The notes: generated by a model not told the origin, from the sequence alone. 64,000 nt of DNA from Planctomycetota bacterium (GCA_029259695.1 JAJDEQ010000102.1:174162-238161); one strand, 5' to 3'; numbered from the stretch's first letter, positions 2 to 39,052 are shown. A program made the numbers and translations.

Positions 2-2368
2 GACAAGGTGGTGACGGCGCAGGCCAGTGTCGCCCAACTCGCCGGGTCGGTGCCCTTGCCCACGGACAGCGAGGCTGTCGCTCGCTACGCGAAGAAGGTG
101 CTCTCCCTCGATCCGGCGCTGCACCAACTGCGCGCATCGGCCATGCCGCGCTTCCATCAACCGGTGGACCCGGTCGTGCTGGTGGCGGGATTGACGCCGT
201 CCGACGGGCAGGGTTCGCTCGCCGGTGGAGGGCCGCTCGCCTGTCGCTTCGCAGACCAGGCCCTGACCGGCGTCAACGTGGAGATCGGGGGCGCGACCAA
301 GCCGGTCAGCGTCGCCACCGGAACACTCGCCAGCGGGGTGCCCGCCACGCCGACCAGCTCCTTCCTGCGCGCGGCGGTCGCCGACGGCATCGCCAGCCTG
401 GCGACCGAGTGCTTCTTCGTGGACGCGACGAACGCCCCGGTGATCGTGCAACTCGGGCTCGGCTCGACCGATCAGGCGGTGATCACGAAGCTGACCGCGG
501 CGATGATCGCGGGCAGCGCCGGCATCTCGACCCGCACGAATCCGCTCCAGGCGGCCGTCGCCTTCCAGCGCTGGGGCCAGCAACCGTTCGCCCCCTTGTT
601 CCTCGAGTGGGAGGTGACCTTCTTCTTCACGGCCGGAGCGAGCCAGATCGCCCCGGACAACTGGCCCTTCGCCGACACGGCCTTCGTCGCGCCCAAGGCC
701 ACGACGCCCGTCTGGGTCTTCAACGGCCGCGACTACGACTGGTACGGCGGCAACCCCGAGCAGTCGTCGACGGACGCGCAGGGCTACGCCGGCCGCACGT
801 TCCTCACGCCCCAGGCGACGGCGGTGTTCATCCGACGCCTGGAGAAGTACCTCGAGGGCAACCCCAACGCCGACCTGAAGGCGGTGGACGCGTTCATCGA
901 CAAGGTCGGCAAGTGGAACTTCCTGTCCCAGCGGCTGAGCGGTCTGAGCGACCAGATGATCATGCGCGACGTGGGCGCCGGCCACCCGCCGGACGCGTCG
1001 GTGGCCGCGCGGGTCGGCGCCCAGTACGACACCACGCCCGATCCGGAGAAGGGCGACCAGGACACCGCGTTCGGATCGGGGACACCGTTCTTCTTCCCGG
1101 TGCGCGGCGGCTTCCTGACGGTCAACCGGCTCCAGGTGGTCGACGCGTTCGGTCAGACGGTGGACCTGATGCAGGCCGGCGGCAACGTGGGCAGCGGTGT
1201 GTCGTGGGTGCCGGTGCGCGGCCGTGAGCTGGTCCCGTCGGCCCACGCCAAGCTCACCGGGGGCACGCTGTTCCCGACCCAGGCGATCAAGCTGTCGCCG
1301 CGCGTGGTGCAGGAGGCGCGGCTCGACTTCCGCTTCGTGTCGGCCACCGACGACAAGCACGACACGGGCCAGTTCGCCGACTCCAACCCGGTCTGCGGTT
1401 GGGTCGTGCCCAATCACCTGGACGGCGGGCTGGCGCTCTACGACGCGTCGGGCGCGGCCCTGGGCGAGTTGCTGCTGGCGTCGACCGCCGGCGGCACCCA
1501 GCAGGTGACCTGGTTCCCGGCGCCCGGCAGTGCGGCCGCGGTCAGCGCTGCGACGCAGATCCCCAACGTCCACCTACGCGGCTTCGCCACGGGGCTCATC
1601 GCGCTGACCGACCCCGAGACGCGCTTCAACGAGTTGCTCGGCGTGATCGACGAGACCCTGTGGGCGGTGGACCCGCTGGGCGGGCGCGACGACCAGAACC
1701 TCTCGGTGCTCATCGGCCGGCCCCTGGCGCTGGTGCGGGCCCGGCTGCAACTCGAACTCGAGCGCGATCCGGTCGTCAACCAGAGCTGGCGCGACACGCT
1801 GGGTGCCAGCGACACCGGGCTGGAGAAGATCGTCTTCGGGGCCCGGCTGGGCAGCCTCGAACTCTACAACGACGGCCTGCTCGGCTACTTCGACGGGGAC
1901 AAGTACAGCACCTTCAACTCGGTGCACACGCCGGAGGGCTTCACGCCGAGCGCGGGCGACTACCTCACGCCGATCGGCGTGGGCGGCAACTACATCCCGC
2001 TCTCGTTCGGCCCCGCTCCCACGGCGTCGCGCTTCGTGAGCATGTTGCTCGATCCCCGCGGCGACGTGCACGCCACCACCGGCATCATGCCCACCAAGGC
2101 GATCAACCTGCCGGCCACGTTCTTCGAACCGGCCTTGAGGCGCATGGCGGTCACCTTCCGCGTCGGCCCGGTGCTGACCGACCCGCAGGCCGTGCGCCTG
2201 CCCTTCCCGGCCGAACGCCACGGCACCTGGTCGTGGGTGCAGCGCCCGTCACCCGGCGGTGACCCCGAGGTCGACGGCATCGTGCGGGCCGACGACGGCG
2301 CCCGCCTGCCGGACACACCGCCGCGACTGATCGAAGGCTGGCTCAAACTGACACCGCCCGACTCCTAG
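2..2368 (+). CDS. C-terminal part (at least 788 codons) of a large uncharacterised protein; 5' end probably lies outside the window
   Basis: The frame is open to the window edge (codons at 2-7 are not stops). The first possible start, GTG at 8, has no visible RBS, and the text after it reads like mid-protein. Third codon positions are GC-rich. Stop TAG at 2366-2368. I recognise no catalytic or family motif, signal peptide or TM segment. Confidence 0.7.
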   Translation, partial: DKVVTAQASVAQLAGSVPLPTDSEAVARYAKKVLSLDPALHQLRASAMPRFHQPVDPVVLVAGLTPSDGQGSLAGGGPLACRFADQALTGVNVEIGGATKPVSVATGTLASGVPATPTSSFLRAAVADGIASLATECFFVDATNAPVIVQLGLGSTDQAVITKLTAAMIAGSAGISTRTNPLQAAVAFQRWGQQPFAPLFLEWEVTFFFTAGASQIAPDNWPFADTAFVAPKATTPVWVFNGRDYDWYGGNPEQSSTDAQGYAGRTFLTPQATAVFIRRLEKYLEGNPNADLKAVDAFIDKVGKWNFLSQRLSGLSDQMIMRDVGAGHPPDASVAARVGAQYDTTPDPEKGDQDTAFGSGTPFFFPVRGGFLTVNRLQVVDAFGQTVDLMQAGGNVGSGVSWVPVRGRELVPSAHAKLTGGTLFPTQAIKLSPRVVQEARLDFRFVSATDDKHDTGQFADSNPVCGWVVPNHLDGGLALYDASGAALGELLLASTAGGTQQVTWFPAPGSAAAVSAATQIPNVHLRGFATGLIALTDPETRFNELLGVIDETLWAVDPLGGRDDQNLSVLIGRPLALVRARLQLELERDPVVNQSWRDTLGASDTGLEKIVFGARLGSLELYNDGLLGYFDGDKYSTFNSVHTPEGFTPSAGDYLTPIGVGGNYIPLSFGPAPTASRFVSMLLDPRGDVHATTGIMPTKAINLPATFFEPALRRMAVTFRVGPVLTDPQAVRLPFPAERHGTWSWVQRPSPGGDPEVDGIVRADDGARLPDTPPRLIEGWLKLTPPDS

Positions 2369-2420
2369 CCCCAGCTTCCGGAAGCCCGCACCGGTCTCAC
2401 CAGCACCACGGAACGTCACG

Positions 2421-3941
2421 TTGCCCGACCCCCTGCTGACTTACGCCGTCCACACCGACCCCGATCCGCTCCAGGCCAGCCCGGCGGAGGGCGAGCCCGC
2501 GAAGGCCAGCCTGACCATCGTGGCGTCGAACGACGGCCGGCACGGTCTGATCAAGTGCGAGAAGATCGTGGTGAGCTTCAAGGTCGGCACGTTGCCCAAG
2601 GACCTCAGTCCGCCCGGCGCCGGCACGGTCGGTCAGTGGGTGACGGATGGCTGGGCGATCTCGGCGGACGGCTCGACCTTCACGGCGACGCCGAAGAGCA
2701 AGGCGGCGAGTTGCATCGGCGCATCGGCCGTCGTGCTGGTGTTCGCCGACGTGATGATCAACGCGGAGCCCGGGACGACGCCGCTGACGATCGTGGAGAC
2801 CGCTTCGGCCGCCGACGGGGACTGCGACCACGCGCCGGCACCGGAGCAACGATCGCTCTGTTGCTGGCTCCACAAGTTCCCGGCAGGATTCACCGTTGGC
2901 TCGCTCGACGCGTCGCCACGTACAGTGTCGCCCGGCGACTCGACGACGCTCTCGTGGAGCGGCTCGCCCGGCGCCACGTACAGCCTGGAATACGATCACG
3001 TAGAGATCGAGCACCCGCGAGACGAACCCGATGCACCGCTGCCTCCGAGCGGCAGCTACCGCGTCGACGACCTGCAATCGGACACGGACTTCAGCCTGAT
3101 GGTCCACGTCAAGGTTCCGGGCGAGGTCAAACCAGTCCGGGTCGAGCGGACGCGGTTCGTCAAGGTCGAACAGCTCACGGTGAAGTTCGCGGTGTTGCCG
3201 GTGAGGGTTGGTCCGAACGGCGTGTGCCGGTTGGAGTGGAAGACGACCCATGCCTCCGCCTGCCGCATCGATCCCGAGGTGGGCAGCGTCCCGACCAGTG
3301 GTTCGGTCTATGTGATCGTTCCGTCGACCCGCAAGTACACGCTCACCGCAACGGAAACGGGTTCGGGCAGTCACCAGCAGGCTGAACGCACGGTGACCGT
3401 CGATCCGGGGATCGTGCCCACGGGAGAGACGATCGGCTTCGAGATGCCCGTGGGCGCCACCGGACTCTCGGGCGAGTATCGGAACCCCACAGAGCTGGAA
3501 GAGAGAGATGGAGGACCCGGTGGTGCCGGCGAGGACGGTGGGAGCGTCCCCGATCAGGACATCCACTCCGGACCACTCGACCTGAGTACGTCGCCAACCC
3601 GGGTCACGCTGGTCCAGAACGTCGGTGGAGCCGGGGGGGACGGCGCGACGGGCGGCAGGGGCAATCAGGCCTGGCCGAGCTACCCGACATCCGGCAACGG
3701 TGGTCGGGGCGGGAACGGTGGGCGTGGTGGTGACGGAGGCGTCTTGACGCTCAGACTCTCGAGCGACGACCCGCCCAGCGCGTACGTGATCGACAACCGC
3801 GGCGGCAAGGGAGGAAGGCACGGGCAGGGCGGTCCGGCAGGCCCCGCCTTGACTGATGACTTCGAGCGAGGTGAGGACGGAGATCCGGGTGAGGACGGCG
3901 ATGATGGTTCGCCGGGAAAGGTGATCATCGAAGATGCATGA
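2421..3941 (+). CDS. Uncharacterised protein, paralogue 1 (506 aa): N-terminal domain, two Ig-like modules and a Gly-rich collagen-like tail
   Basis: TTG start at 2421, 52 nt after the upstream stop. Clear paralogy with the next gene (LQASPA..LTIVASND, IVVSFK, STTLSW.GS.GATY, NGVC.L.W.TT.ASACRIDP, YTLTATE.GSG, RTVTVDP, and an identical C-terminal VIIEDA). The tail carries GGAGGDGATGGRGN, GNGGRGGNGGRGGDGG and GEDGDPGEDGDDGSPGK. No signal peptide as read. Confidence 0.8.
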   Translation: MPDPLLTYAVHTDPDPLQASPAEGEPAKASLTIVASNDGRHGLIKCEKIVVSFKVGTLPKDLSPPGAGTVGQWVTDGWAISADGSTFTATPKSKAASCIGASAVVLVFADVMINAEPGTTPLTIVETASAADGDCDHAPAPEQRSLCCWLHKFPAGFTVGSLDASPRTVSPGDSTTLSWSGSPGATYSLEYDHVEIEHPRDEPDAPLPPSGSYRVDDLQSDTDFSLMVHVKVPGEVKPVRVERTRFVKVEQLTVKFAVLPVRVGPNGVCRLEWKTTHASACRIDPEVGSVPTSGSVYVIVPSTRKYTLTATETGSGSHQQAERTVTVDPGIVPTGETIGFEMPVGATGLSGEYRNPTELEERDGGPGGAGEDGGSVPDQDIHSGPLDLSTSPTRVTLVQNVGGAGGDGATGGRGNQAWPSYPTSGNGGRGGNGGRGGDGGVLTLRLSSDDPPSAYVIDNRGGKGGRHGQGGPAGPALTDDFERGEDGDPGEDGDDGSPGKVIIEDA

Positions 3942-5475
3942 CGACCAGTACGGGACCGCCTCAGACGCGGGTGTCGCTTCCGGGCCACTGCTGACGTACA
4001 TCGTCAGCACCGACCCCGATCCGCTGCAGGCCAGCCCGGCCACCGGCGCTCCGTCGACGGCGACGCTCACGATCGTGGCGTCCAACGACCAGGCGAATCA
4101 AAGCGCAGTCGACTGCGAGCAGATCGTGGTGAGCTTCAAGCCGGGCAGCCTGCCCACCGACCTCAGCCCGAGTTCGGCCGCCGCTCCGGGCATGAAGGCC
4201 ACCGATTGCTGGAAGGTCGAAGCGGACGAGACGACCTTCACGCTCACGCCGCTGACCAAGGCGGCGGGCGAGGTGGGGAAGTCGAGCGTCACCCTCGTGC
4301 TGACCGACGTCACGATCAACACCGAGCCGGGCACGGCGAACCTGACGATCACGGAGACGGCATCCCAGCCGACCGCGAGCCCGCCGGTACCGAAGGCAGA
4401 GCGTTCTCTCGACTTGCCGATCGGGAAGTTTCCGCCGCGCTTCAGGGTCGGCGAGCTCGACGCACGGCCCCTCACCGTCCCGGCCGGAGGCTCGACGACG
4501 CTCTCGTGGAACGGCAGCTCGGGAGCCACCTACGTCGTGGAGTTCGACGGCAAGACGATCGACCACGTCCCGGACAAACCGAACGAGCCGCTGCCGTCGA
4601 GCGGCAGCCTGCGGATCGACGGCCTGAAGCAGAACCCCACCGTCTTCAACCTCGTGGTGAGCGTGAAGGTGCCCGGGCAGGCCACGCCGTTGGAAGTCGT
4701 GAGGTCGCGCTCGGTGAGCGTGGAGCAGCTCACCGTCGACTTCGCCGCGCAGCCGTTGAGGGTCGCTCCCAACGGTGTGTGCAAGCTCACCTGGATCACG
4801 ACCAACGCCTCCGCCTGCCGCATCGACCCCGACGTCGGCGACGTGCCGACGAGCGGTTCGGTCTACGTGATCGTCCCGGCGACAGGTGGACCGACGCACG
4901 TGTACACACTCACCGCGACGGAGGCCGGTTCGGGTCATCCGGACCAGGTCCAACGCACCGTGACCGTCGACCCGACCATCGTGCCGCCGCAAGTCCCTCA
5001 CGTGATCAACACGGGGCTCCCCGGACCGCCTGGAGCGACGGGGGGGCGCGGCCCGGGCGGGGCGCCCGGTCGTCCGGGAGGATCCGGCGAGCGTGCTGAG
5101 AACGGCGGTCCCGGTCTCAACGCGCCCGACACGGTCTTCTCGCCGGGGCCGCTCGACCTGAGCGGATCGCCGGAACAGATCATGTTGATCCAGAACCTCG
5201 GTGGGGCTGGCGGCAAGGGGGGGACGGGCGGTGCCGGCGGGGCGGGGAGCCCCCCGGGGGCCGGTGGGCCGGGCGGCGATGGTGGGCCTGGCGGTGACGG
5301 CGGGAACCTGACCCTGCGCCTGGGGAGCGAGGGTCCGCGCAGTGCCTACGTGATCGAGAACCGGGGCGGGAAGGGGGGCACGCGCGGCGAAGGAGGTGCC
5401 GGGTCGACGCGCGGTTCACCCGGCAAGCGCGGCAAGGACGGCAAGGCGGGCACGGTGATCATCGAGGACGCCTAG
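3934..5475 (+). CDS. Uncharacterised protein, paralogue 2 (513 aa): same architecture, with nine consecutive Gly-X-Y triplets
   Basis: ATG at 3934 overlaps the upstream stop (TGA 3939-3941) within the string ATGCATGA. Collagen-like run GLPGPPGATGGRGPGGAPGRPGGSGER at nt 5014-5094. C-terminal GSPGKRGKDGKAGTVIIEDA. GC3-rich frame. Confidence 0.85.
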   Translation: MHDDQYGTASDAGVASGPLLTYIVSTDPDPLQASPATGAPSTATLTIVASNDQANQSAVDCEQIVVSFKPGSLPTDLSPSSAAAPGMKATDCWKVEADETTFTLTPLTKAAGEVGKSSVTLVLTDVTINTEPGTANLTITETASQPTASPPVPKAERSLDLPIGKFPPRFRVGELDARPLTVPAGGSTTLSWNGSSGATYVVEFDGKTIDHVPDKPNEPLPSSGSLRIDGLKQNPTVFNLVVSVKVPGQATPLEVVRSRSVSVEQLTVDFAAQPLRVAPNGVCKLTWITTNASACRIDPDVGDVPTSGSVYVIVPATGGPTHVYTLTATEAGSGHPDQVQRTVTVDPTIVPPQVPHVINTGLPGPPGATGGRGPGGAPGRPGGSGERAENGGPGLNAPDTVFSPGPLDLSGSPEQIMLIQNLGGAGGKGGTGGAGGAGSPPGAGGPGGDGGPGGDGGNLTLRLGSEGPRSAYVIENRGGKGGTRGEGGAGSTRGSPGKRGKDGKAGTVIIEDA

Positions 5476-5511
5476 CCGTCGGCGGCGACGGCGCGCAGGC
5501 GCCGGCCGGGT

Positions 5512-6699
5512 TCAGCGATCGAAGCCGAAGCCCGGGGGTGTGTCCAGCCAGGGGTAGCCACCGAGTGCCAGCTCGTAGCCGAGGTCGAAGAGCTTGGCCA
5601 TGTACACCGGGTCGAAGCCCTCGGTGGGTACCTCGACGAACGAGGCCGGGATGTGGGCCAGGTGGAAGTCGTTGCCGTCGCGGTTGCACAGCGCGTGGAT
5701 CTGGTACAGGTCGCCGATGCCCTGGGTGCGGATCAGTGAGTCGATCGAGCGCGTCGCGATCGGCATCAGGTTGCGGTCGACGCGTTGGTGGCTGGCGCCG
5801 ATGAACGAGTTGCGGATCACGTAGATCTGGGGGCGGCCCTGCACGGACAATTGGTCGGTCACGCGTTGCCAGTTCACGGCCGCCGGGTACACGAAGACCT
5901 GCGAGCCGGTGCCGCCGTCCACGTGCATCTCGTCGTAGGGCCGGCCGTCGACTTCGACGTCGATCATGACCGGTGGGAAAGCCACGGGGATCGCAGCCGA
6001 CGCCTGCAGGATGTCGTGGATCAATTCGATCTTGTGCGGGTGATCGCTCGCCGCGATTTCGCCCACGTTCCAGATCACCGGTCGTCCGGCGTCCAGGTTG
6101 ACCGTGCCGATGTAGAGCCGTCGGCCCTTGGCGAACTCGACCGCGATGGCCTCGATCACGGCGGCGTCGAAGATCTCTCCCAACAGCTTGCGCAGCGGCG
6201 TGGTGTCGGCCATGGAATCGCCGAAGGCGCCCGCCAGGATGCCACGCGGTTCGAGCACGTCCTTGGTCCTCACGGTGGTGTAGACGTGCTGGAGTTCGTC
6301 GTCGTAGTCGCTCCCCAGGAAGGCGAACGGCGCGGTGAGCGCTCCGGTGCTGATGCCCGTCACCATGGCGAACTGCGGGCGGGTGCCCGTGGCGCTCCAG
6401 CCCACGAGCAGGCCGGCGCCGAATGCGCCGTTGGCGCCGCCGCCGGAGATGGCGAGATAGTGGTGGGGCACGCCGTAGAGGTCGGGGAAGGTCTCGCGCA
6501 CCTCGTCGCTCTGCATGTCGAAGAAGCGCCCCATGTTGAAGGTCGGCCACTCGTCAGCCCAGAAGCGGCCGCCCGGCAGGCCGGGGATCCCGGCCTCGTT
6601 CGTCAGCTCCATCGGCACGGGGTTGCGCTCGGGTGCTCCGAGGCAGCCGGGGAGCACGAGGGCGAGTGTCAGCAGGGCGAGCGGGCAGGTATGGCGCAC
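5512..6699 (-). CDS. Patatin-like phospholipase, predicted lipoprotein
   Basis: Oxyanion motif ISGGGANGAFGAG, nucleophile elbow GISTG (GxSxG) and catalytic Asp in HVDGGTG. GTG start at 6699 gives VRHTCPLALLTLALVLPGC (lipobox), with AGAGGA upstream. The track ORF extends to 7008, but that N-terminal extension has no support. Confidence 0.85.
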   Translation of the reverse strand: MRHTCPLALLTLALVLPGCLGAPERNPVPMELTNEAGIPGLPGGRFWADEWPTFNMGRFFDMQSDEVRETFPDLYGVPHHYLAISGGGANGAFGAGLLVGWSATGTRPQFAMVTGISTGALTAPFAFLGSDYDDELQHVYTTVRTKDVLEPRGILAGAFGDSMADTTPLRKLLGEIFDAAVIEAIAVEFAKGRRLYIGTVNLDAGRPVIWNVGEIAASDHPHKIELIHDILQASAAIPVAFPPVMIDVEVDGRPYDEMHVDGGTGSQVFVYPAAVNWQRVTDQLSVQGRPQIYVIRNSFIGASHQRVDRNLMPIATRSIDSLIRTQGIGDLYQIHALCNRDGNDFHLAHIPASFVEVPTEGFDPVYMAKLFDLGYELALGGYPWLDTPPGFGFDR

Positions 6700-6883
6700 G
6701 GACCGTGTTCCTCTGGAGGAGTAGGCGATGGGGCCCGGGAGTATGGCGAACCGGGCTGCGGTTCGCACACGCTGTGCCCATGCTCCGTCGCTAGAATCCC
6801 CGAACCTGCCGGGGGCGGGCCTTGCATGCGTGCTTCGTCGACCCCGGCTCGCCCCGAAGTGCACCCATCGAGGAGACCGCCTG

Positions 6884-8623
6884 ATGACGCGCCAGGCCAT
6901 GTCGCTGCTGTTGTCCTGTTCGTTCCTGCTCGCCGCCACGGCCCGTGCCGACGAGACGTTTCCGGTGGGCACGTTCCCGGTGGACATCGCTCTCGACCCG
7001 GTGCTCAACCGGATCTACGTGGTCAACCTGTCCTCGGACGACGTGACCATGCTCGACGCGACCACCGGCGTCGTGCAGACCATCGCGGCGGGCAGCCAGC
7101 CCAACGGCATGGCGGTCAACCCGATCACGGGGCTGGCCTACGTGGCCAACCGGGATGCGGACACGGTGACCGTGATCGACGGCAGTGACGGTTCCACCCA
7201 GACCATCTCCGTGGACATGTACCCGCTCGAGGTCGCCGTGAACCCGGTCACCAATACGATCTATGTCGTGTGCCGGGACTCCGACAGCGTGACGGTCATC
7301 GACGGCAGCGACAATTCCACCCAGAGCGTGAGCGTGGGTGACTCTCCGGCCGACATCGCGCTGAACCCGGTCACGAACTCGATCTACGTGCCCAACAGCA
7401 ACGCGGGTAACGTGACCGTGATCGACGGCAGCGACAACTCGACCCAGACGGTGACGGCGGGCCTGGGACCGATCCGGGTCGACGTGAACGCGGTCACCAA
7501 CAAGGCCTACGTGCTGAACATCGCAGCCAGCACCATGACGGTGATCGACGGCAGTGACAACTCGACGCAGACGGTGACGACGGGCACGCTGCCCCGGGCC
7601 CTGGCGATCAACCCCGCAACGAACCGCATCTACGCCGTGGTCGTGGAGGGCGTCACCGTGGTCGACGGGAGCGACAACTCCACCCAACTCGTGGCCACGG
7701 GTGTGCTGCCCTGGGAGGTGGCGGTGAATGCGTCCACCAACCGCATCTACATCGTGAACCAGAACTCGTCCAACATGACGGTGATCGACGGCAGCGACAA
7801 CTCCAGCGTGAATGTCTCGGTGACCGGCAGTCCCATCGCCGTGGCGGTGAACCCGGCCACCGGCGTGGTCTACACCGCCAGCGACGGAACCGAACTGCTC
7901 ACGTCCATCGACACCGCGGAACTCGCCGTGGACCTGCCCTTCGACGTGGCGATCACGCCGCTCCCGGGAGACATCGCCTTCGTCGACGGGCCCAGCACGA
8001 TCTCCCTCGCGGCCACCAGCACGTTCGCGCCGACCGCGCCGGCGGTGCAGCAGATCTACGTGCAGGTCGACACGCTCCACGGGGAGTGGACCGCGGCCAC
8101 GCCGCCGGGTGCCAGCGCCACGGTGGACATCGGGCCGCTCCCGGTCGGACCGCACGTGCTGTACGCGTTCGCCGCCGATGGGCAGGTGGCGGCAGACCGC
8201 AGTCTGGTGCTGAGCGACGTGGCCGCGTATGCGTTCGAGTCGTTCAGCCCCTGGGAAGACCTGGGCAACGGCCTGGCCGGGACCCACGGTGAGCCGTTGC
8301 TCGCCGGCACCGGCACGCTCTTCGGCGGCGACCCGCTGACGATCACGCTCAGCAACGCGCTCGAGAGCAGCACCGCGTTCCTGGTGGCCGGCCTGACCCG
8401 CGTCGACGCGCCGTTCAAGGGCGGCGTGCTCGTGCCGGCGCTCGACATCGCGAGCTTCCCGCTGGCGTTGCCCACCGGTCCGTCGGGGACGATCCCGATT
8501 CCCGCCATCTGGCCCCTGGGTATCCCGTCGGGTTTCAGCGTGTACTACCAGTACTGGATCCTCGATCCGGCGGGCCCGGTCGGCTTCGCAGGCAGCAACG
8601 GGCTCTCGGGGACGACGCCCTGA
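6884..8623 (+). CDS. Secreted YVTN-family beta-propeller repeat protein with a shared C-terminal domain
   Basis: ATG at 6884 is preceded by AGGAGA at 6871-6876. Signal peptide MTRQAMSLLLSCSFLLAATARA. About ten repeats of roughly 42 aa of the form N.IYV.N..S..VTVIDGSDNSTQ. Confidence 0.9.
   Translation: MTRQAMSLLLSCSFLLAATARADETFPVGTFPVDIALDPVLNRIYVVNLSSDDVTMLDATTGVVQTIAAGSQPNGMAVNPITGLAYVANRDADTVTVIDGSDGSTQTISVDMYPLEVAVNPVTNTIYVVCRDSDSVTVIDGSDNSTQSVSVGDSPADIALNPVTNSIYVPNSNAGNVTVIDGSDNSTQTVTAGLGPIRVDVNAVTNKAYVLNIAASTMTVIDGSDNSTQTVTTGTLPRALAINPATNRIYAVVVEGVTVVDGSDNSTQLVATGVLPWEVAVNASTNRIYIVNQNSSNMTVIDGSDNSSVNVSVTGSPIAVAVNPATGVVYTASDGTELLTSIDTAELAVDLPFDVAITPLPGDIAFVDGPSTISLAATSTFAPTAPAVQQIYVQVDTLHGEWTAATPPGASATVDIGPLPVGPHVLYAFAADGQVAADRSLVLSDVAAYAFESFSPWEDLGNGLAGTHGEPLLAGTGTLFGGDPLTITLSNALESSTAFLVAGLTRVDAPFKGGVLVPALDIASFPLALPTGPSGTIPIPAIWPLGIPSGFSVYYQYWILDPAGPVGFAGSNGLSGTTP
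8252..8620 (+). other. C-terminal domain of about 123 aa shared with the FG-GAP protein (copy 1)
   Basis: W.DLG..LAG...APFKGGVLVP...WP.G...G...Q.W..D..G..G...NG.SGT.P runs to the last residue and aligns with 18277-18639. Confidence 0.7.
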
Positions 8624-10209: not shown

Positions 10210-11250
10210 TCAGCCCAGCGGGTGCTCCCGCTTCCACATCTCCGCGAAGTGGCGGATGGGATCGTCGGGCGGGTAGATGCGGGCGGTCGTCACCGCGGGC
10301 GGGGCCTCGCGCGGTGTGGTCTGGAGGAAGGCGTACTTGGTGCAGGCCAGTTCGAGCGCGTACCAGGTCCAGTAGCCGTCCATCAGGGTGGGCAGGTCGA
10401 TCGTCGTCTGGTTCTCGGGCGTGCCCATGGAGACGAAGAACGCGTCCTGGTGGCGGATGCGGCGCAGGGGCGGTCGGCGCAGCCGCACCATGAGCGGGCG
10501 GGCTTCCGAGAGCTGGACGTGCACGTCGGGCGCGAGGGGCACCACGCCGTTGCCGGGCGGGAAGAAGATGCCCAGCGTGCTCTCGGTGTACTCCGTCGTC
10601 GCGCTCACGCCGAGCAGGTGGTGCAGCCACTCCAGGTCGAAGGCGTGGAGCAGGCCCCACTTGTGATCGGTCGCCGCCTCGGTGGCGAAGTACGCGGCCA
10701 CGTCTTCCGAGTGGGTGAAGTCGACGAACCACGACGGCAGGCCGTAGTGCCGGGCCGTGAGCTGCAGCTCTTCCCGTGAGAAGTCGCTGAGGTCCCGGCC
10801 CAGTCGCCCCGCGGCGCTCTCCGCCAGCAGGTCGTCGATGAAACGCTCGGTCCAGGCCAGGCGGCGGTTGACCAGAGCGAGGTTGTGTTCCAGTCCGTCG
10901 CGCAACCAGGGCAGGCTCCAGTCCAGCCCGCGCAGCACGGTGGGGAAGATCGACCAGCCCGCTTCGCTCTGGCCGCGGAACAGCAGCCGCACCGGCATGA
11001 GCGGTCGCTCGACGTGGGGCAGGCTCTCGAGTGCTCCGCTCGGGGCCGCCGCCGACTTGCGCAGGATCTCGGCGTACTCGTCCGGCGCGACCTCGGCGGC
11101 GCGGGTTTCGGCGGTGTCTTCCCGGACGGCGGCGACGGCTTCGTCGGCGGTGTGGAAGGCGGCCACGTCCCAGGCGCGTGTCTGGGCGGCGCGCCCCGTG
11201 CTGTCGGGGATCTGGTAGGCCAGTTGGATCGACCTGCGCGGGCCGCTCAC
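10210..11250 (-). CDS. FRG domain-containing protein
   Basis: LLFRGQSEAGW and ARHYGLPSWFVDFTHSEDVAAYFA match the FRG-domain signature. The GTG start at 11250 overlaps the upstream TGA stop (GTGA, 11247-11250). Confidence 0.8.
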   Translation of the reverse strand: MSGPRRSIQLAYQIPDSTGRAAQTRAWDVAAFHTADEAVAAVREDTAETRAAEVAPDEYAEILRKSAAAPSGALESLPHVERPLMPVRLLFRGQSEAGWSIFPTVLRGLDWSLPWLRDGLEHNLALVNRRLAWTERFIDDLLAESAAGRLGRDLSDFSREELQLTARHYGLPSWFVDFTHSEDVAAYFATEAATDHKWGLLHAFDLEWLHHLLGVSATTEYTESTLGIFFPPGNGVVPLAPDVHVQLSEARPLMVRLRRPPLRRIRHQDAFFVSMGTPENQTTIDLPTLMDGYWTWYALELACTKYAFLQTTPREAPPAVTTARIYPPDDPIRHFAEMWKREHPLG

Positions 11251-12239
11251 GGCAGCTCGAGTTCGACGGGCGCTCGCGTTCCGGCGCGCACCGCGAGGGA
11301 GCTGCGCGTCTCGCCCGCGCTGGTCGACCACGCGCTGAGTTCGATCTCACCCGCGGGGATGCCGTCCCACTGGAACCGGCCTGCGGCGTCCGTGAAGGCC
11401 ACGAACGGGTTGCCGATCACCGCGAGTCGCCCGGTCGGTTCGGCATCGCCGTGGGCCTTGCACCCCAGGCTGATCAGACCGAGGTGGCGCTTGAACATCA
11501 CCTGACGTTCACCGCCGGCGACCACGGGGTAGTGGAACACGGGCCGATCGTCGCGGCCGGCCGTGATGGCGGTGTGCAGCACGTCATCGGTGTTGCGCAG
11601 CGTGAGCGGCTGGTAGCAGCGCACGACCGCGAAGGCGGGCGCGAAGCCTGCGCCTGCGTTGACGAGTTCCACGGGTTCGGTCGGCGCCGCGAACACGTAC
11701 TCGTCGAGGCCGGACGACACGAACACCAGCACACCGGCCAGGGGAGCGCCGGCCGCATCAGTGACGCTGCCCGACAAGCCTCCGGTCGTGGCCGGGTCGA
11801 TGCTGGTGGGCGTGAGCGGCTCGCGCACGAAGAAGTCGCCCTTGGCCGGCTTGGTGGCCGTGGGCGGCGCCGTGGACTCGGGCACGCCCGGCGGGGGGAT
11901 CACGCTCCACAGCACGTGGGACACGGTGAAGGTGATCGCGAACTTGGCGAAGGTGAGCCGCAGCGTCTCCAGGAACAGCGCGCTGCCGCTGAGCTTGCGT
12001 TCGAAGGCCAGGAACACCAGCGCGAGCAGCGGGATCGGCGCGTAGCTCCACCAGATGTTGGCGTTCATCTGGTCCATGTCCAACGGCTCCCACACCGGAT
12101 GGATCACGGTGAAGATCACCAGTGTGATGGCGAGACAGATCCCGAAGGAGGTCCACGAGAGCAGCGCGGGCGTGTCGTCATGGTGGGGCGTCGTCAGCGC
12201 TGGGGTGGAGGCGGAGGGGTCGGCGGGTGGGGGATTCAT
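11247..12239 (-). CDS. Integral membrane protein (three TM helices) with a Pro-rich linker and a beta-rich C-terminal ectodomain
   Basis: TM segments: LLSWTSFGICLAITLVIFTVI, WWSYAPIPLLALVFLAF and FAKFAITFTVSHVLWSVI. The C-terminal part resembles CarboxypepD_reg and cupredoxin-like folds (LRNTDDVLHT ... LGCKAHG); that assignment is tentative. Confidence 0.75.
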   Translation of the reverse strand: MNPPPADPSASTPALTTPHHDDTPALLSWTSFGICLAITLVIFTVIHPVWEPLDMDQMNANIWWSYAPIPLLALVFLAFERKLSGSALFLETLRLTFAKFAITFTVSHVLWSVIPPPGVPESTAPPTATKPAKGDFFVREPLTPTSIDPATTGGLSGSVTDAAGAPLAGVLVFVSSGLDEYVFAAPTEPVELVNAGAGFAPAFAVVRCYQPLTLRNTDDVLHTAITAGRDDRPVFHYPVVAGGERQVMFKRHLGLISLGCKAHGDAEPTGRLAVIGNPFVAFTDAAGRFQWDGIPAGEIELSAWSTSAGETRSSLAVRAGTRAPVELELP

Positions 12240-13995: not shown

Positions 13996-14553
13996 TCAGC
14001 GTTCGGTGAGCAGCGCCGGCAGCTCGGCCATGACCCGTGCGAAGGGCCCGGTCTCGCCCGTGGCCCGGGCCACGACGAGGGCGCCCTGGACCCGCACCAG
14101 TGCCTGCTCCGCAGCTCGTCGAGCCCGCGCGGGCGGCAGGCCCGCGTCCCGGGCCACCTTGGCCATGGCGTCGTGCCAGGTCATGAGCGACTGGGCCAGA
14201 TGATCGTGCCAGGGTTCGGCGGCGCCCACCGACAACGTGTCGAGCAGGCACGACTCCTCACCACGCTCGTAGAACTCCGCCAGACGCCGGGTCATGGCGC
14301 GCACGCGTGCTACGGGTTCCCCGTCCGCGCTCAAGGGCTCGAGCACGTGAGTCGCGAACCAACCGTCGGCATGAACCAGCACCGCTTGCACCATGTCGGG
14401 TTTGCCACCGGGGAAACGGTGGTACAGGCTCGATCGCTGCAGCCCGGTGGCCTCGGAGATGCGCGTGAGGCTCGCGCCCTCGTAACCGAAGCGGCGGAAC
14501 ACGTCGGTCAGCCGTGTGAGCAGGGCGTCGTCGTCGAGCTTGGGGCGCGGCAC
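13996..14553 (-). CDS. TetR/AcrR family transcriptional regulator
   Basis: N-terminal HTH: LTRLTDVFRRFGYEGASLTRISEATGLQRSSLYHRFPGGK. GTG start at 14553. Confidence 0.9.
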   Translation of the reverse strand: MPRPKLDDDALLTRLTDVFRRFGYEGASLTRISEATGLQRSSLYHRFPGGKPDMVQAVLVHADGWFATHVLEPLSADGEPVARVRAMTRRLAEFYERGEESCLLDTLSVGAAEPWHDHLAQSLMTWHDAMAKVARDAGLPPARARRAAEQALVRVQGALVVARATGETGPFARVMAELPALLTER

Positions 14554-14583
14554 CCGGGCATGGTAACGGATCGAACTCAGTCA

Positions 14584-14617
14584 GGCGCGGCGGGGTTCGA
14601 GCGAACCCCGCCGCGCC
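14584..14617. terminator. 34-nt near-perfect GC-rich palindrome: terminator hairpin of the beta-helix gene, or a TetR operator
   Basis: Arms GGCGCGGCGGGGTTCG (14584-14599) and CGAACCCCGCCGCGCC (14602-14617). It sits 100 nt downstream of the stop at 14719 and 31 nt upstream of the tetR GTG. No U-tract. Confidence 0.45.
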
Positions 14618-14718
14618 TTGGAAGAGCCGGTGCTGAGTGTTTCGTGTTGGCGACGAGCCCGAGCCCGAGCCCGAGCTGTGGGCTCGACGCCGCGCCGCTC
14701 ACTCCGTCCCGCTCGACA

Positions 14719-15801
14719 TCACTTGGTCTCGTTGGCCAAGAGCACCACGCCGTTGGCGGAGGCGATGTTCTTGCCGCCGCACTTCTTGACCTTGTTGCGC
14801 ATAGCGGTGGCGGGGGTGGCGGGCAACTCGATGCCGTCGCCGGCGGCAGAGGAGACGTCGTTGCCGATCACCAGCACGGAGGTGGCGGGGGCGAAGATGC
14901 CGTCCCCGCCGACCTTCTTGATCGAGTTGTCCTGGATCGTCGCACCGTGCGAGCTGACGTAGATTCCGTTCTGTTCGATCTTGCTGATCTTGTTGCCGCG
15001 CACGATGATCGAGTTGCCGCCGGCCTGGATCCCGGACGAGCACGACTTGATCGAGTTGGCGAGCACGGTGGTCGCGCTGCCGTCGTTGTCGATGGCTGTG
15101 AAGGCGCCCTGGATCTGGTTGTTGCTGATCGTGGTGTTGGAGGAACTGCTCAGGACGTAGACGGCGCGCAGGGCGCCCTTGATCTTGTTGCCCTGCACCA
15201 CCGACGTCGTCGTGCTGGAGACCCACAGCGCGTTGCTGTGGTTCGTGACCTCGTTGGCCAGCATGGTGACGTTGGTGGACTCGTGGGCGTACACCGCGCT
15301 GGTGCCGTCCTCGAACTCGTTCTTGCGCAGCATGACGCCGAAGGACTCGAGCACGCGGGCGCCGGTGGCCAGGCCGCGGAACTCGCAGTCGTAGATGATC
15401 ACGCCGCGGGAGTCGTCGACGTCGATGCCCGAGTTCGTGCCAGTTGTCGTGAAGCGCAGGCCGACGATGCGGATCGTGGAGGACTTGCGCACCGTCATCG
15501 AGTAGTGCCCGGGGGCGGTGCCCGTGCCTTCGATCACGACCTTGCCCTTGGCGCGCAGGGTGAGGTCGGCCTTGCCGACGATCGAGACGACCTCGTTGTA
15601 CTTGCCCGAGGAGATCTGGATCACGTCGCCCGCCTCGGCCTGGTTCACGGCGGACTGGATCGTGGAGAAGGACTGGGGCACGGCGAGCACGTCGGCCCGG
15701 GCGGGGGCGCTGAAGGCCAGCAGCAGCGCGGCGAGGGCGAGGGCGGCGGGGGCCCGGCGCTGGGCGGGGCGGCTGTCGGTGGGGGTCGACGGGGTGTTCA
15801 T
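14719..15801 (-). CDS. Secreted right-handed parallel beta-helix repeat protein (pectin-lyase fold)
   Basis: ATG at 15801 (MNTPSTPTD...) with signal peptide ALALAALLLAFSAPARA. Repeated motifs include N.I...., G..V......V..N.F and NNQIQG. The track ORF 14719..18804 fuses this gene to a shadow ORF. Confidence 0.85.
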   Translation of the reverse strand: MNTPSTPTDSRPAQRRAPAALALAALLLAFSAPARADVLAVPQSFSTIQSAVNQAEAGDVIQISSGKYNEVVSIVGKADLTLRAKGKVVIEGTGTAPGHYSMTVRKSSTIRIVGLRFTTTGTNSGIDVDDSRGVIIYDCEFRGLATGARVLESFGVMLRKNEFEDGTSAVYAHESTNVTMLANEVTNHSNALWVSSTTTSVVQGNKIKGALRAVYVLSSSSNTTISNNQIQGAFTAIDNDGSATTVLANSIKSCSSGIQAGGNSIIVRGNKISKIEQNGIYVSSHGATIQDNSIKKVGGDGIFAPATSVLVIGNDVSSAAGDGIELPATPATAMRNKVKKCGGKNIASANGVVLLANETK

Positions 15802-15996
15802 GGTCTGGTCCGTTCTGCAGGGGATCGGGTTGTGTGCGGCGATCCACGCTGGAGGATCGGCTCTCACCTGCGAGGAACGACATCGCTGCCCGGGAGCCGA
15901 CAGGCCGTCGCGGCCCCGCTCCCCGGCTTCCCGGGTATGGTCGTTCCGCCCCCCTGAGACCACGTCCCGGCCGGCCCCCGGCCCAAGAGAGATGGC

Positions 15997-18642
15997 ATGC
16001 AGAAACGTCCGTCGCTCCGTCGTTCGCGGTGGCTCGCCTGGATCCTGGCCGCCATGCTCACGACGAACGGGGCCTTGGCCCAAGACGTCCTGCAGGACCT
16101 CGAGACCTATTCCCTCCCGGGCCCGCCCCCTGGCACCGGCCTCGTCGGCCTGAACGACCTGGTCGTCTCGGACCTCGACGGCGACGGCGTGCAGGACTTG
16201 ATCCTGAACGTTCGCGGTGTCCAGCTTCCGGTGAGCAGTCACCGCGTCTACGTGGCGCGCGGCCTCGGCGTGGCGAGCTTCGACGCGCCGGTGCCGCTGC
16301 ATCCCTCGATCCCGGAGCAGCTCGAGTTGGGGGCCCTGTTCCCGTTCGCCGTGGGGGACGTGGACGAGGACGGCGCGCTCGACGTGATGCACACGTTCGT
16401 CGCCACGGACGATGTGGTGCTGGTGCTCGGCCAGGGCGACGGCACGTTCACGTCCGTCACCCCGGTCGCCGTGGGCGGCGTCGCCGACGTGCTGCACCTC
16501 ATGGACGTCGACACCGACGGGCACCTCGACATGGTCTTCGCGCTCGTGGGGCAGAACCGGGTGCGCGTGCGCCTCGGAGCGGGGGACGGCAGCTTCGGCC
16601 CGGTGATCCAATCCGTCGCCATGCCCGGCATCCAGCGCATCGTCATGGGCGACCTCGACGACGACGGTCTCGTCGACCTGGTCGTGGGCGCGGGCGAGCC
16701 GCTGGTGTTCACCTTTCCCGGGCCGGGCGGCAACGTCATGTTTCTGGGCGGCCGCGGCGACGGCAGCTTCGATCCCCCGGTCGTGATCGGGCCCGTCGGC
16801 CCCAGCGACATCGCCGTGGGGGACGTGACGGGCGATGCCGTGGACGACCTCGTCATCACGCAGTCCACCGGCTGGTCCCTGCTCGCCGGCGTGCCGGGCG
16901 CGGCCCCCGCGGCGGCGCAGTTCTTCCCCACCGACTTCTCGCTGAACCGCGTGCGCCTGGTGGACATCGACACCGATGGCGACCTCGATGGGGTCATCGG
17001 CGCCCAGGCGACGCGCCAGGTGTTCGTGCTTCGGAACGAGACAGGCACCGGACTGGGCGCGCCGCGTGCGTTCGGGGCCTTGGCGGCCCCCGCCTTTCCG
17101 CCGGTGGTCGCTGACGTGGACAACGACGGGCGCAACGACCTGCTGTTCAACGGAGTCGACCTGAGCATCCTGCTGGGTCAGGCCGACGGGGGCTTCCGCC
17201 CCGCCTGGGGCGTGCCGGACGACCCGCGCGGCGTCGCCATCGGCGACCTCGACGGCGACGGCTTCACCGACCTCGTGGTCCTGGGAGACGAGGGCGGCCC
17301 GGGGTACGTCATGCTCGGGCGTCCGGGGGGCGAGATGGGCTCGCCGCTGCCGGTGGACCTGGGGCCCGAACCCGTGAACGTGTTCGTGCGCGACGTGACC
17401 GACGACGGCCGGGCGGACCTCGTCACGATCCAGGGCGGCAACTTCGGTGGCGGTGTGCTCGACGGCATCGTCGTGGCGCCCGGCCAGGGCGACGGGACCT
17501 TCGGCGCGATCGTGACCACGCCCGTGGAGTTCGACGTGCGCCTGGGCGTAGTGGAGGACGTCAACGGCGACGGTCTGCCGGACGTGCTGCTCGGCATCCG
17601 CGATCTCCCGAGCACGTGGGAGGTGCACGTCATGCTCGGGCAGGGCGACGGCTCCTTTCTGTTCCGCCAGGCCCGCCCGCTCCCGGACAGTCCCCAGTCG
17701 ATCGTGGTGGGTGACCTCGACGGCGACCCCCTGCCCGACCTGGCCGTGACGACGGCGTCCAACAGCATCAACCCGAACGGCGACCTGTCGCTCTTCGTCG
17801 GCGTTCCCGGCGCGCCCTTCTCCGCGCCCGTGGTGGTGGATGCCCAGGTCGACTTCCCGTTGGGCATGGACCTGGGTGACGTCACCGGCGACGGCCTGCT
17901 GGATGCCGTGATCGTCGATGCAAGGGCCGAGCCCTCCCAGGTCGTCGTGTTCCCGGGTGTGGGCGACGGCACGGTCGCCGCGCCGCTCGTGCAACAGGTC
18001 GCCTTCGAACCCACCATGGTCCGACTCGCCGACCTCGACCGCGACGGTGTGCTCGACCTGGTGACGACATCCGTCATCGGGGCCACGACGGTCCTCCGCG
18101 GCATGCTGTTCCTGCCGGGGCTCGGCGGCGGACAGTTCGGTTCCCCCGAGGTCCATCCCAACTGGACGCTCGATGTCCTGGAGCTGGGCGACCTGGATGG
18201 CGACGGCGCCCTCGACGTGGTCGTCGCCCCGGACGAGCAATTCCACGTGAAGTCCTACCTGAACACCCGCGGGCCGTGGCGCGACCTGGGCTTCTCGCTG
18301 GCCGGCGACGCGGGCTTCTCCAAGCTGTTGCCCGTGGGCACGCTGGAGCCGGACAGCGCGCTGCAACTGCGCATCAGCGGCGCGCCCGCGCTGGCCCCGA
18401 CCTCGCTCGTGGTGGGCGTGGTGTCGCTGCTCGCCCCGTTCAAGGGTGGTGTGCTCGTGCCGGACCCGCTGCTGATCGTGGCGGGGCTCTCCACCGACGG
18501 CGACGGCGCGCTGGTGCTGCCCTCGACCTGGCCGACGGGGCTGGGGCCCGGCGTGACGTTGCTGATCCAGGCCTGGTTCGTCGATGCGGGGGCGCCGGCG
18601 GGTCTCTCGTCGACCAACGGAATCTCGGGCACCTCTCCCTGA
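15997..18642 (+). CDS. Secreted FG-GAP/VCBS repeat protein with a shared C-terminal domain
   Basis: Signal peptide WLAWILAAMLTTNGALA. More than 12 repeats of the D.D.DG..D type (DLDGDGVQDL, DVDEDGALDV, DVDTDGHLDM and others). Confidence 0.9.
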   Translation: MQKRPSLRRSRWLAWILAAMLTTNGALAQDVLQDLETYSLPGPPPGTGLVGLNDLVVSDLDGDGVQDLILNVRGVQLPVSSHRVYVARGLGVASFDAPVPLHPSIPEQLELGALFPFAVGDVDEDGALDVMHTFVATDDVVLVLGQGDGTFTSVTPVAVGGVADVLHLMDVDTDGHLDMVFALVGQNRVRVRLGAGDGSFGPVIQSVAMPGIQRIVMGDLDDDGLVDLVVGAGEPLVFTFPGPGGNVMFLGGRGDGSFDPPVVIGPVGPSDIAVGDVTGDAVDDLVITQSTGWSLLAGVPGAAPAAAQFFPTDFSLNRVRLVDIDTDGDLDGVIGAQATRQVFVLRNETGTGLGAPRAFGALAAPAFPPVVADVDNDGRNDLLFNGVDLSILLGQADGGFRPAWGVPDDPRGVAIGDLDGDGFTDLVVLGDEGGPGYVMLGRPGGEMGSPLPVDLGPEPVNVFVRDVTDDGRADLVTIQGGNFGGGVLDGIVVAPGQGDGTFGAIVTTPVEFDVRLGVVEDVNGDGLPDVLLGIRDLPSTWEVHVMLGQGDGSFLFRQARPLPDSPQSIVVGDLDGDPLPDLAVTTASNSINPNGDLSLFVGVPGAPFSAPVVVDAQVDFPLGMDLGDVTGDGLLDAVIVDARAEPSQVVVFPGVGDGTVAAPLVQQVAFEPTMVRLADLDRDGVLDLVTTSVIGATTVLRGMLFLPGLGGGQFGSPEVHPNWTLDVLELGDLDGDGALDVVVAPDEQFHVKSYLNTRGPWRDLGFSLAGDAGFSKLLPVGTLEPDSALQLRISGAPALAPTSLVVGVVSLLAPFKGGVLVPDPLLIVAGLSTDGDGALVLPSTWPTGLGPGVTLLIQAWFVDAGAPAGLSSTNGISGTSP
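18277..18639 (+). other. C-terminal domain of about 121 aa shared with the YVTN protein (copy 2)
   Basis: WRDLGFSLAG...APFKGGVLVP...WPTGLGPG...QAWFVDAGAPAGLSSTNGISGTSP, aligning with 8252-8620. Confidence 0.7.
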
Positions 18643-18692
18643 AGGGGGCTTCCTGGCGGGGTCGGTCCTGGCTCGGGAGCGGGACGCCCGCA

Positions 18693-18712
18693 GCGGCGGC
18701 GGGTGCCGCCGC
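18693..18712 (+). terminator. Short GC hairpin downstream of the FG-GAP gene
   Basis: GCGGCGGC, loop gggt, GCCGCCGC (8-bp stem, 4-nt loop), about 50 nt after the stop. No U-tract. Confidence 0.3.
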
Positions 18713-18841
18713 GCATGCCGGAGAGTTCGTGGCCCGTCCGTCGACCGCTCCCTTTCACGGCCGATGGGCATCGGGCAACATGAGTCGCCGTGCCCTGCAG
18801 TCACCGGTCACCGGACCGGTGCCGGGGCGGAGACCCTGAGC

Positions 18842-19414
18842 ATGACGCGCATCCTTGCGTTCGCCGGCAGTGCCCGGCGGCAGTCGTTCAACAAGCAACT
18901 CGTGGGGCTCGCTGCCGCCCAGGCGCGCGCGCTCGGCGCCGACGTGACGCTGGTCGACCTGCGCGAACTGCCCATGCCGCTCTACGACGGCGACCTGGAG
19001 GACGAGCAGGGCGTGCCGCCCAACGTGGTCGAGTTGGGAGCGCTCATGCTGTCCCACGATGCGTTGCTGCTCGCTTGCCCGGAGTACAACGGGTCGATCA
19101 CTCCGTTGCTCAAGAACACCATCGACTGGCTGTCGCGGCCCTACGGCGACCTGGCGCCACTCGCTGCGTTCGAGGGCAAGCTGGCCGCGTTGCTCAGTGC
19201 GTCGCCCGGCGGCTTCGGCGGCATGCGCGGCCTGGTGCACGTGCGCGCGATCCTGTCGGGCATCGGCGTGCACGTCATCCCGCAGGATGTGTCGGTGCCG
19301 GCGGCGCACAAGGCGTTCGGAGACGGCGGTGCGCTGGTCGACGGCAAGCTCGCGGGGCGCCTGTCCGCCGTCGTGAGCGCGCTGGTCGAGACGGCCGGGA
19401 AGTTGCGCGGCTGA
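18842..19414 (+). CDS. NAD(P)H-dependent FMN reductase family oxidoreductase
   Basis: MTRILAFAGSARRQSFNKQL...LLLACPEYNGSITPLLKNTIDWLSRP is typical of the FMN_red family. Confidence 0.85.
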   Translation: MTRILAFAGSARRQSFNKQLVGLAAAQARALGADVTLVDLRELPMPLYDGDLEDEQGVPPNVVELGALMLSHDALLLACPEYNGSITPLLKNTIDWLSRPYGDLAPLAAFEGKLAALLSASPGGFGGMRGLVHVRAILSGIGVHVIPQDVSVPAAHKAFGDGGALVDGKLAGRLSAVVSALVETAGKLRG

Positions 19415-19428
19415 GTGGTGGACGGCGC

Positions 19429-20274: not shown

Positions 20275-20347
20275 ATCGGCGCGCCCTCTCGTGCGGGCCC
20301 TCGCCGGGCCCGTGGCGACCCTTCTCCGAACAGCGCTCGAGCAGCCG

Positions 20348-20824
20348 ATGAACGTCCAGCCCGGATCACAGCACGCGTCGGACGCCTTGCAGCCGGGCGC
20401 CCACTGCCGCATCGGCGAGGCCGAGTGGTTCCACTTCCTCCAGGTCCGCGAACCGCTGCACCAGTGGGGCGGAGCGTTCCTGCACGCCGAGGGGCCCGAG
20501 CCGAGCGACCTCGTGCGGGTCTACCTGCGCGACGATTCCCGGCGCGGTGTGTTCATGTGTGTGCGTCTCGATGCCGCCCGTTCGCGGCAGGCTCGGACGG
20601 GCGTGGCGGGTATCGAGTCCCTGTCGCGCGCGGCGGCGGACGTGATCACCGCCAACCAGGCCAAGGCGGCGCTCTCGCCCGCCGACATGGGAGCGGAGCA
20701 GCACGCGTCGGCTCGGTTCCAGGAGGCCGGGGACGCGCTCTACGCCGCGCTGCTCGGCGGCCCCCCGGACGCGGCGGCGTCCGCCGAGGGCTCCCGGCCG
20801 GACGGTTCGTCGGGCGCGGACTGA
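20348..20824 (+). CDS. Hypothetical protein
   Basis: GC3-rich frame with no recognisable motif. An alternative start lies at 20291. Confidence 0.45.
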   Translation: MNVQPGSQHASDALQPGAHCRIGEAEWFHFLQVREPLHQWGGAFLHAEGPEPSDLVRVYLRDDSRRGVFMCVRLDAARSRQARTGVAGIESLSRAAADVITANQAKAALSPADMGAEQHASARFQEAGDALYAALLGGPPDAAASAEGSRPDGSSGAD

Positions 20825-20939
20825 GGCGCGGGGCGCGACGCGTGCACCTGCCCCTTGCGTCGACGCGCTGAACCTGGATTCTCGTGCGGCCCGGGCGTGC
20901 GCCCGGGAACGCGTGTTCCGTCATGCTCCGAGGATCCTG

Positions 20940-21944: not shown

Positions 21945-21998
21945 GCCGCGCGTGCCGCCGCGCTCAGCGATCCGCGGGATCGTGAAGACCAGGCCGCA

Positions 21999-39042: not shown

Positions 39043-39052
39043 GGCCCCCGCG

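Follow-up and report, generated by a model that had tools for sequence, protein, structure and literature searches.

The 64,000-nucleotide (nt) stretch of Planctomycetota bacterium DNA analysed here (GCA_029259695.1, JAJDEQ010000102.1:174162-238161; hereafter the window) begins with the C-terminal part of a large gene, termed B, followed by two tandem paralogous genes, p1 and p2. It is proposed, with a probability of about 50%, that these three genes form the downstream half of a self-contained four-component operon, consisting of genes Z, A and B and an array of genes sharing an N-terminal domain, D1, and that D1 docks exchangeable binding proteins on a core made by Z, A and B. The proposal draws on the paralogy of p1 and p2, their domain architecture, a near-invariant synteny, natural gene fusions, tips of the binding type and the lack of recognisable relatives of Z, A and B. 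Mechanistically, D1 would attach the array proteins to a large core complex of Z, A and B, with the C-terminal end of B or its vicinity as the probable site, and the core would thereby display a small repertoire of alternative ligand-binding tips. These tips would decide what the complex attaches to, by analogy with the receptor-binding fibres carried on a phage baseplate, a tailocin or a toxin complex.

Order and distribution of the Z-A-B-D1 cassette

The open reading frame (ORF) at the window edge aligns with the C-terminal half of a 1440-amino-acid (aa) protein encoded on the first contigs that yielded homologues, where a protein of ~900-970 aa and one of ~1410-1440 aa are followed by four to six paralogous genes. 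A scan of GTDB using one genome per species (185,579 species) returned 230 loci, 80 of which were fetched; the layout of the cassette was derived from 83 related loci and the D1 counts from 84, with locus ORFs called mechanically from the first start codon, so that gene starts are approximate. Clustering of the ORFs from the 83 loci gave the same gene order on one strand almost everywhere: Z (~900-2470 aa), A (~750-1000 aa, sometimes split into about 500 and 300 aa), B (~1250-1440 aa) and then one to six D1 genes of 450-850 aa each. In total, 156 ORFs carry D1, all of them on the strand of B and most directly after it, and two of the five loci without D1 end right after B.

An earlier reading of the window, made from the sequence alone, had tentatively placed the three genes in a fibre, adhesin or cargo module belonging to a larger locus with its core upstream. 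This placement is supported by the co-occurrence of the genes across genomes, A and a DUF6603 protein preceding B in about 70 loci and D1-type genes following B on the same strand in 79 of 84. The further expectation that the upstream core would be made of secretion, contractile-tail or phage-like genes was not borne out, since three families without recognisable relatives were found there instead. The window itself holds a B-family protein with D1 genes directly downstream on the same strand, as in the cassette, and synteny with about 70 related loci suggests that Z and A lie upstream of B in this genome.

The cassette occurs in about ten phyla, among them Acidobacteriota, Pseudomonadota (Alpha- and Gammaproteobacteria), Cyanobacteriota, Bacteroidota, Myxococcota, Actinomycetota (Streptomyces, Frankia, Kitasatospora) and Bacillota (Sporomusa, Paenibacillus), with copies on chromosomes as well as on megaplasmids of Streptomyces, Embleya, Kitasatospora and Paenibacillus. 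A word-indexed search found over 110 members of the B family. Among 116 immediate neighbours of the cassette, no Pfam family recurred more than three times, and the same Pfam scan revealed no conserved secretion, lysis, phage or defence context; the cassette is autonomous, its flanking genes being unrelated between loci. The gene order is not absolutely fixed, as in Sporomusa silvacetica (L043) the DUF6603 gene (18049-22536) stands downstream of the D1 genes and not upstream of A. In five loci (L004, at 2154-3113, L006, L029, L042 and L062) a gene of ~320-370 aa lies directly upstream of Z on the same strand; Pfam Trypsin matches the L004 copy (E 2e-07) and one other member, and the gene may encode an accessory protease.

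The D1 proteins and their exchangeable tips

Reading of the frames confirmed the edge ORF of at least 788 codons, the 52-nt gap behind it and the tandem paralogues of 506 and 513 aa noted in the sequence-only reading (Table 1). The edge ORF matches the last 788 residues of P0026, a database protein of 1324 aa, at 100% identity from end to end, and the window therefore starts at codon 537 of gene B; identity to B of two related loci is 56% (L001, residues 641-1440) and 38% (L002). The N-terminus of p1 lines up with the N-termini of its homologues. BLASTP aligned p1 and p2 with 53% identity over 513 columns (E 4e-134), close to the half of positions judged identical by eye, and the shared ending VIIEDA was likewise recovered; by domain, identity amounts to 56% in D1, 58% in D2, 74% in D3 and 52% in the Gly-rich region. 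The junction of the two genes reads gaa gat gca tga / atg cat gac, and the 8-nt overlap described earlier, ATGCATGA, was found to be common to the p1 stop and the p2 start, where translational coupling is plausible. A consensus scan of positions 2200-5700, with most of B lying before its starting point, found no promoter-like site and no terminator-like site on the + strand; together with the p1/p2 overlap, this suggests that B, p1 and p2 are co-transcribed, in favour of the proposed operon.

The four-part architecture first read from the paralogues agrees with an AlphaFold2 model of p2 and with domain hidden Markov models (HMMs) in both proteins. The model, a monomer built from a 24-sequence alignment (predicted local distance difference test, pLDDT, 89), has beta-sandwich domains at residues ~20-166, 176-264 and 267-345, and the Gly-rich region after the third domain is confidently placed, with short strands only and mostly neither helix nor strand. 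The HMMs gave the same boundaries in p1 and p2 as in the model, and both proteins match the D1 HMM with E about 1e-43. Foldseek comparison of the model with PDB returned generic tandem immunoglobulin (Ig) or FnIII matches only. One detail of the earlier description does not extend to the family, namely the Cys pair of the third domain, since the alignment shows the first Cys in the two window paralogues only and the second as partly conserved.

No family had been recognised for the three proteins, and B, p1 and p2 indeed have nothing significant in Pfam, NCBIfam, PADLOC or PHROGs; the profile searches, which could have placed them in a well-described family, found no described family. Searches of all PDB chains with the B sequence were empty, as were searches of PDB sequences with the B profile, and p2 gave weak, composition-driven matches only. 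Homologues of p2 were few in a word-indexed search, every one labelled hypothetical. In a hydropathy scan, B, p1 and p2 all lacked a hydrophobic segment at the N-terminus, in agreement with the earlier statement that the three lack an N-terminal signal peptide or transmembrane (TM) segment.

A search of 1.84 billion cluster representatives with the D1 profile yielded 1530 proteins, 877 of them at E <= 1e-10, and D1 occupies residues ~2-160 in nearly every family member. The general layout is an N-terminal beta-sandwich D1, one to several Ig-like spacers and a distal tip. D1 is the only part common to all array members, the domains behind it varying even within one locus, where paralogues keep D1 and D2 and differ in the tip. 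Pfam scans of two sets of D1 proteins (107 and 83) identified beta-propeller tips of the YncE/YVTN, WD40, PD40 and Kelch types in 14 of the 107 and 22 of the 83, and phage tail Collar tips in 3 and 4, respectively; Peptidase_S74 (endosialidase intramolecular chaperone) was found in 4 proteins, fn3 in 5 and Laminin_G_3 in 2. No toxin or enzyme domain was detected in either set, and the tips outside the window are of the binding type. The S74 and Collar tips suggest that the minority of relatives carrying them form trimers. The Gly-rich tip of p1 and p2, about 160 aa long, is present in 9 loci; its GGxGGxGG blocks are invariant, and the loops that separate them vary and are rich in indels.

In an Acidobacteria-type subgroup (L004, at 14064-16923, L006, L007 and L021), the gene behind B encodes a 345-aa D1-D2 protein that lacks a tip, and on either side of it are short ORFs of ~170-200 aa belonging to the same BLAST cluster; in these loci the anchor and the tip may have separate genes. 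There is no small gene between p1 and p2, and in most loci none was noted within the array; short ORFs of about 170-200 aa occur in the array of a few loci. A 1345-aa protein with 17-18 identical tandem 73-residue repeats (P0194) matches part of D1 and D3 weakly and is probably an unrelated repeat protein.

Natural fusions link D1 to the core. B and D1 are joined in frame in L029 and L068, and a similarly extended B in L070 gave a D3 match only; L068 and L070 are cultured isolates. In all three extended proteins a linker of 30-50 residues connects EGWLxLxP, the conserved C-terminal motif of B, to the downstream domains. In addition, one 2618-aa protein consists of Z fused to two D1 proteins.

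Table 1. Positions of the B, p1 and p2 features in the window and of the repeat inserted in core proteins.
Feature	Position	Strand	Basis
Core protein B, C-terminal 788 codons (residues 537-1324)	2..2368	+	Open frame from base 2; stop 2366-2368
Spacer between B and p1, 52 nt	2369..2420	+	Sequence read
p1, D1-anchored protein, 506 aa, TTG start	2421..3941	+	ORF, BLASTP, domain HMMs
p1, D1	~2427-2885	+	Domain HMMs
p1, D2	~2889-3176	+	Domain HMMs
p1, D3	~3177-3416	+	Domain HMMs
p1, Gly-rich tip	~3420-3938	+	Domain HMMs
Overlap, 8 nt, ATGCATGA; p2 start and p1 stop inside	3934..3941	+	Sequence read
p2, D1-anchored protein, 513 aa, ATG start	3934..5475	+	ORF, BLASTP, AlphaFold2, domain HMMs
p2, D1	~3982-4437	+	Domain HMMs
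p2, D2	~4438-4731	+	Domain HMMs
p2, D3	~4732-4983	+	Domain HMMs
p2, Gly-rich tip	~4984-5472	+	Domain HMMs
Inserted repeat	P0026 residues 57-164 (upstream of the window); L014:6996-9935 residues ~187-422		Sequence matches

The core proteins, known systems and competing explanations

Z carries Pfam DUF6603 (E about 1e-150), while Pfam and NCBIfam scans returned nothing for A and B. The copy on a Paenibacillus polymyxa plasmid is annotated at NCBI as a 'DUF6603 domain-containing protein' followed by hypothetical proteins, and neither DUF6603 nor PF20248 was found mentioned in the literature searched. Profile-profile comparison (hhalign) showed Z, A and B to be mutually unrelated, the BLAST link between A and B being a shared inserted repeat only. 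The AlphaFold2 model of B (pLDDT 88, predicted TM-score 0.84) had no Foldseek neighbour in PDB or BFVD better than E 0.16. In A, several Arg, His, Glu and Ser residues are invariant and might mark an active site. A hydrophobic stretch of Z (SLFIFAFLDAPIGGPAFFF) was considered as a TM segment and rejected, being a conserved DUF6603 core motif that contains D, G and P. The inserted repeat, of about 80 residues with the pattern GxGYxxPPxVxIsGGGGxGAxAxA, occurs in A and B of the clade to which the window belongs, and the scanned A copies of L050 and L012 are without it. Its only other matches are virion proteins of cyanophages (neck/head-closure Hc2, baseplate wedge, tail fibre and giant structural proteins) and of Ralstonia phages; being common to phage virion proteins, the insert gives a hint of surface exposure on a particle.

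The D1 proteins resemble phage and tailocin tail fibres and spikes in their conserved N-terminal anchor, spacer and exchangeable distal binding domain, in the several alternative versions encoded in tandem, and in the Collar and Peptidase_S74 tips of some members. They differ in that neither phage records nor PHROGs contain a sequence match to D1 or the spacers, in that p2 is predicted to be a string of Ig-like beads and not a trimeric beta-helix or coiled coil, and in that the partner proteins are not those of a baseplate or tail; p1 and p2 belong to no Pfam or PHROGs family, and no tail, baseplate or capsid genes stand alongside. Nor was the system found in the phage collections searched: the B core is absent from 50,697 phage records, where the inserted repeat alone matches, 2.9 million IMG/VR contigs contain neither B nor Z, tblastn of p2 against the phage records gave no match, and the PHROG matches of p1 and p2 are at chance level only.

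For the Gly-rich tip, two likenesses were considered. The gp38 adhesin of T-even-like phages, a polyglycine type II sandwich, is a binding tip with conserved glycine-rich motifs and variable segments between them (PMC12032242). The GGxGGxGG blocks and variable loops of the Gly-rich tips may be compared with its glycine-rich motifs and hypervariable loops, by an analogy taken from the literature; the two share no sequence similarity, and no gp38 chain is among the PDB sequence matches. The Obg-family N-terminal domain is also ~160 aa long, with GGxGGxGGD motifs followed by short strands, but no GTPase domain follows the Gly-rich tip. The best PDB matches of the Gly-domain profile were MTG2 (7odt) and B. 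subtilis Obg (1lnz), with marginal and composition-biased E-values of 0.016-0.028, and hhalign of the tip profile against E. coli ObgE gave 1.8% probability; the resemblance to an Obg fold is thus marginal and remains a lead.

Tc (ABC) toxin complexes are likewise encoded by a multi-gene operon for very large soluble proteins without signal peptides, include Ig-like receptor-binding elements and are found in both Gram-negative and Gram-positive bacteria, whereas the cassette has no VRP1, TcA-TcB-binding, Rhs/YD-repeat or hypervariable toxin domain by Pfam, PDB profile searches were empty and B had no fold match. In cellulosome scaffolds (cohesin-dockerin), too, many subunits share one small docking module for a large scaffold, but there is no sequence relationship, the D1 subunits carry binding domains and not enzymes, and signal peptides are absent. 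As regards contractile injection systems (extracellular contractile injection systems, tailocins and type VI secretion systems), no sheath, tube, gp25, gp27/VgrG or ATPase was detected by Pfam, NCBIfam and PHROG searches of Z, A and B or by Pfam in the 116 neighbours. PADLOC-DB 2.0 gave no significant match to known anti-phage defence for Z, A, B, p1 or p2, and the variable C-termini of the D1 proteins are propeller, lectin, collar and Gly-rich domains, not the toxin domains of polymorphic toxins (Rhs, contact-dependent inhibition). As the features of a phage fibre, a tailocin or a toxin complex were not found, the cassette was filed under none of them.

The complex probably acts outside the cell, after lysis or by an unrecognised export route, which is favoured by about two to one because of its Ig, fn3, lectin, collar and S74 domains, typical of extracellular proteins, and the virion-type insert. 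Several points weigh against the docking and display of tips as proposed. The association of D1 with the core is predicted from synteny and gene fusions, and Z and A are predicted for this genome from synteny, as the window opens within B. The core has no recognisable enzymatic, nucleoside triphosphatase (NTPase), nuclease, protease or pore-forming motif, and ligand binding by the Gly-rich tip is putative, as it is for the other tips. No signal peptide or convincing TM helix was found in Z, A, B or the D1 proteins, so that extracellular display would require lysis or an export route of a kind not recognised here, and no lysis or secretion gene is conserved among the 116 neighbours. Where a fusion comes from metagenomic data, it could have arisen as an artefact of assembly or gene calling. 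Finally, WD40 and Kelch propellers also act as cytoplasmic sensors.

The absence of signal peptides in both monoderm and diderm hosts leaves room for an intracellular sensor role. Under this explanation, which is unlikely, the cassette would encode a recognition or immune complex in which D1 proteins sense invader proteins (e.g. those of phages) in the cytoplasm and signal to a Z-A-B effector. Apart from the missing signal peptides, its patchy distribution, suggestive of horizontal transfer (230 loci among 185,579 species representatives), its autonomy and the frequency of WD40, Kelch and other propellers among the tips would suit such a complex, and the L002 locus adjoins a type I restriction system, a DUF1016 nuclease and a Tn3 transposase. 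Yet the PADLOC search was without a significant match, Pfam and NCBIfam scans found no nuclease, NTPase, TIR, SIR2 or pore-forming effector domain, defence genes are not enriched in the flanks, and the Collar, Peptidase_S74, Laminin_G_3, fn3 and Ig-like domains are typically extracellular.

Somewhat less probable again is the alternative, offered by the sequence-only reading, that the D1 proteins are not stable subunits but the cargo of a new apparatus for secretion or injection, formed by Z, A and B, with D1 as the loading or export signal. A signal of this type would be expected where D1 is found, at the extreme N-terminus and as the sole part common to array members, and each locus would then encode several different cargoes. 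The in-frame B-D1 and Z-D1 fusions argue instead for a permanent association; moreover, the tips are binding domains and not toxins or enzymes, no immunity-like small genes accompany them, and the cassette includes no membrane-spanning component or ATPase to power export.

It is improbable that p1, p2 and their relatives are independent surface adhesins that simply lie beside B and have no functional link to Z, A and B: bacterial adhesins often have Ig-like or propeller architectures, but these proteins have no signal peptide or sorting signal, the synteny extends over about ten phyla, D1 proteins are fused to B and to Z, and every D1 gene in the 84 loci is on the strand of B, most directly downstream (a count that applies to those loci and not to the genomic context of the 1530 D1 proteins). 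Least credible of all is a remnant prophage, tailocin or contractile injection system with the paralogues as diverged tail fibres, for which the Collar and Peptidase_S74 domains of some family members and the virion-type repeat of A and B would speak, since the B and Z cores and p2 are missing from the phage collections as described above, PHROG matches fall only within the inserted repeat, neither the operon nor its flanks show a recurrent sheath, tube, baseplate, capsid, terminase or integrase family, and the B model has no BFVD neighbour.

The docking of exchangeable binding proteins on a Z-A-B core thus remains the preferred explanation. A wider version of it is more tentative and falls short of even odds: Z, A and B would form an unrecognised machine that is not derived from phages, has core folds without solved relatives and has spread horizontally across at least 10 phyla, its targets being chosen through the exchangeable D1-anchored array; it would serve delivery, predation or adhesion if it acts outside the cell, or the recognition of invaders if it acts inside.

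Other genes of the window and significance of the cassette

Beyond p2, a patatin-like phospholipase gene (5512-7008, - strand) converges on p2 with 36 nt between the stop codons. A YVTN/lactonase-type beta-propeller protein (6728-8623, + strand) has five VIDGS-type repeats and an internal start resembling a signal peptide (MTRQAMSLLLSCSFLLAATARA); a link between this propeller and the D1 proteins was considered and rejected, as it shows generic similarity of 26-36% to propeller tips and has no D1. Further along are genes for an FRG-domain protein (10210-11331, - strand) and a 1361-aa protein (14719-18804, - strand) with a right-handed beta-helix region of the NosD or pectate-lyase-like type. 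Long ORFs without a Pfam match lie at 32647-38910 (+ strand, 2087 aa) and 38957-41701 (+ strand, 914 aa), which are adjacent, and at 58013-61024 (- strand, 1003 aa).

If the proposed operon is correct, the cassette would be a conserved multi-protein system without a described function, of which no mention was found in the literature searched. Its carriers include cultured and tractable bacteria, namely Streptomyces clavuligerus (megaplasmid), Paenibacillus polymyxa (plasmid), Azospirillum, Sphingomonas, Tateyamaria and Chitinophaga. Of the core proteins, which measure about 1300, 900 and 1300 aa, B was modelled with confidence and is without structural neighbours in PDB and BFVD. The cassette gives Pfam DUF6603 its first functional context and defines D1 as a new anchor domain, with about 1500 sequence clusters. 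The plug-in binding proteins of the array would then represent a natural programmable targeting scheme, comparable to that of phage receptor-binding proteins or tailocin fibres.

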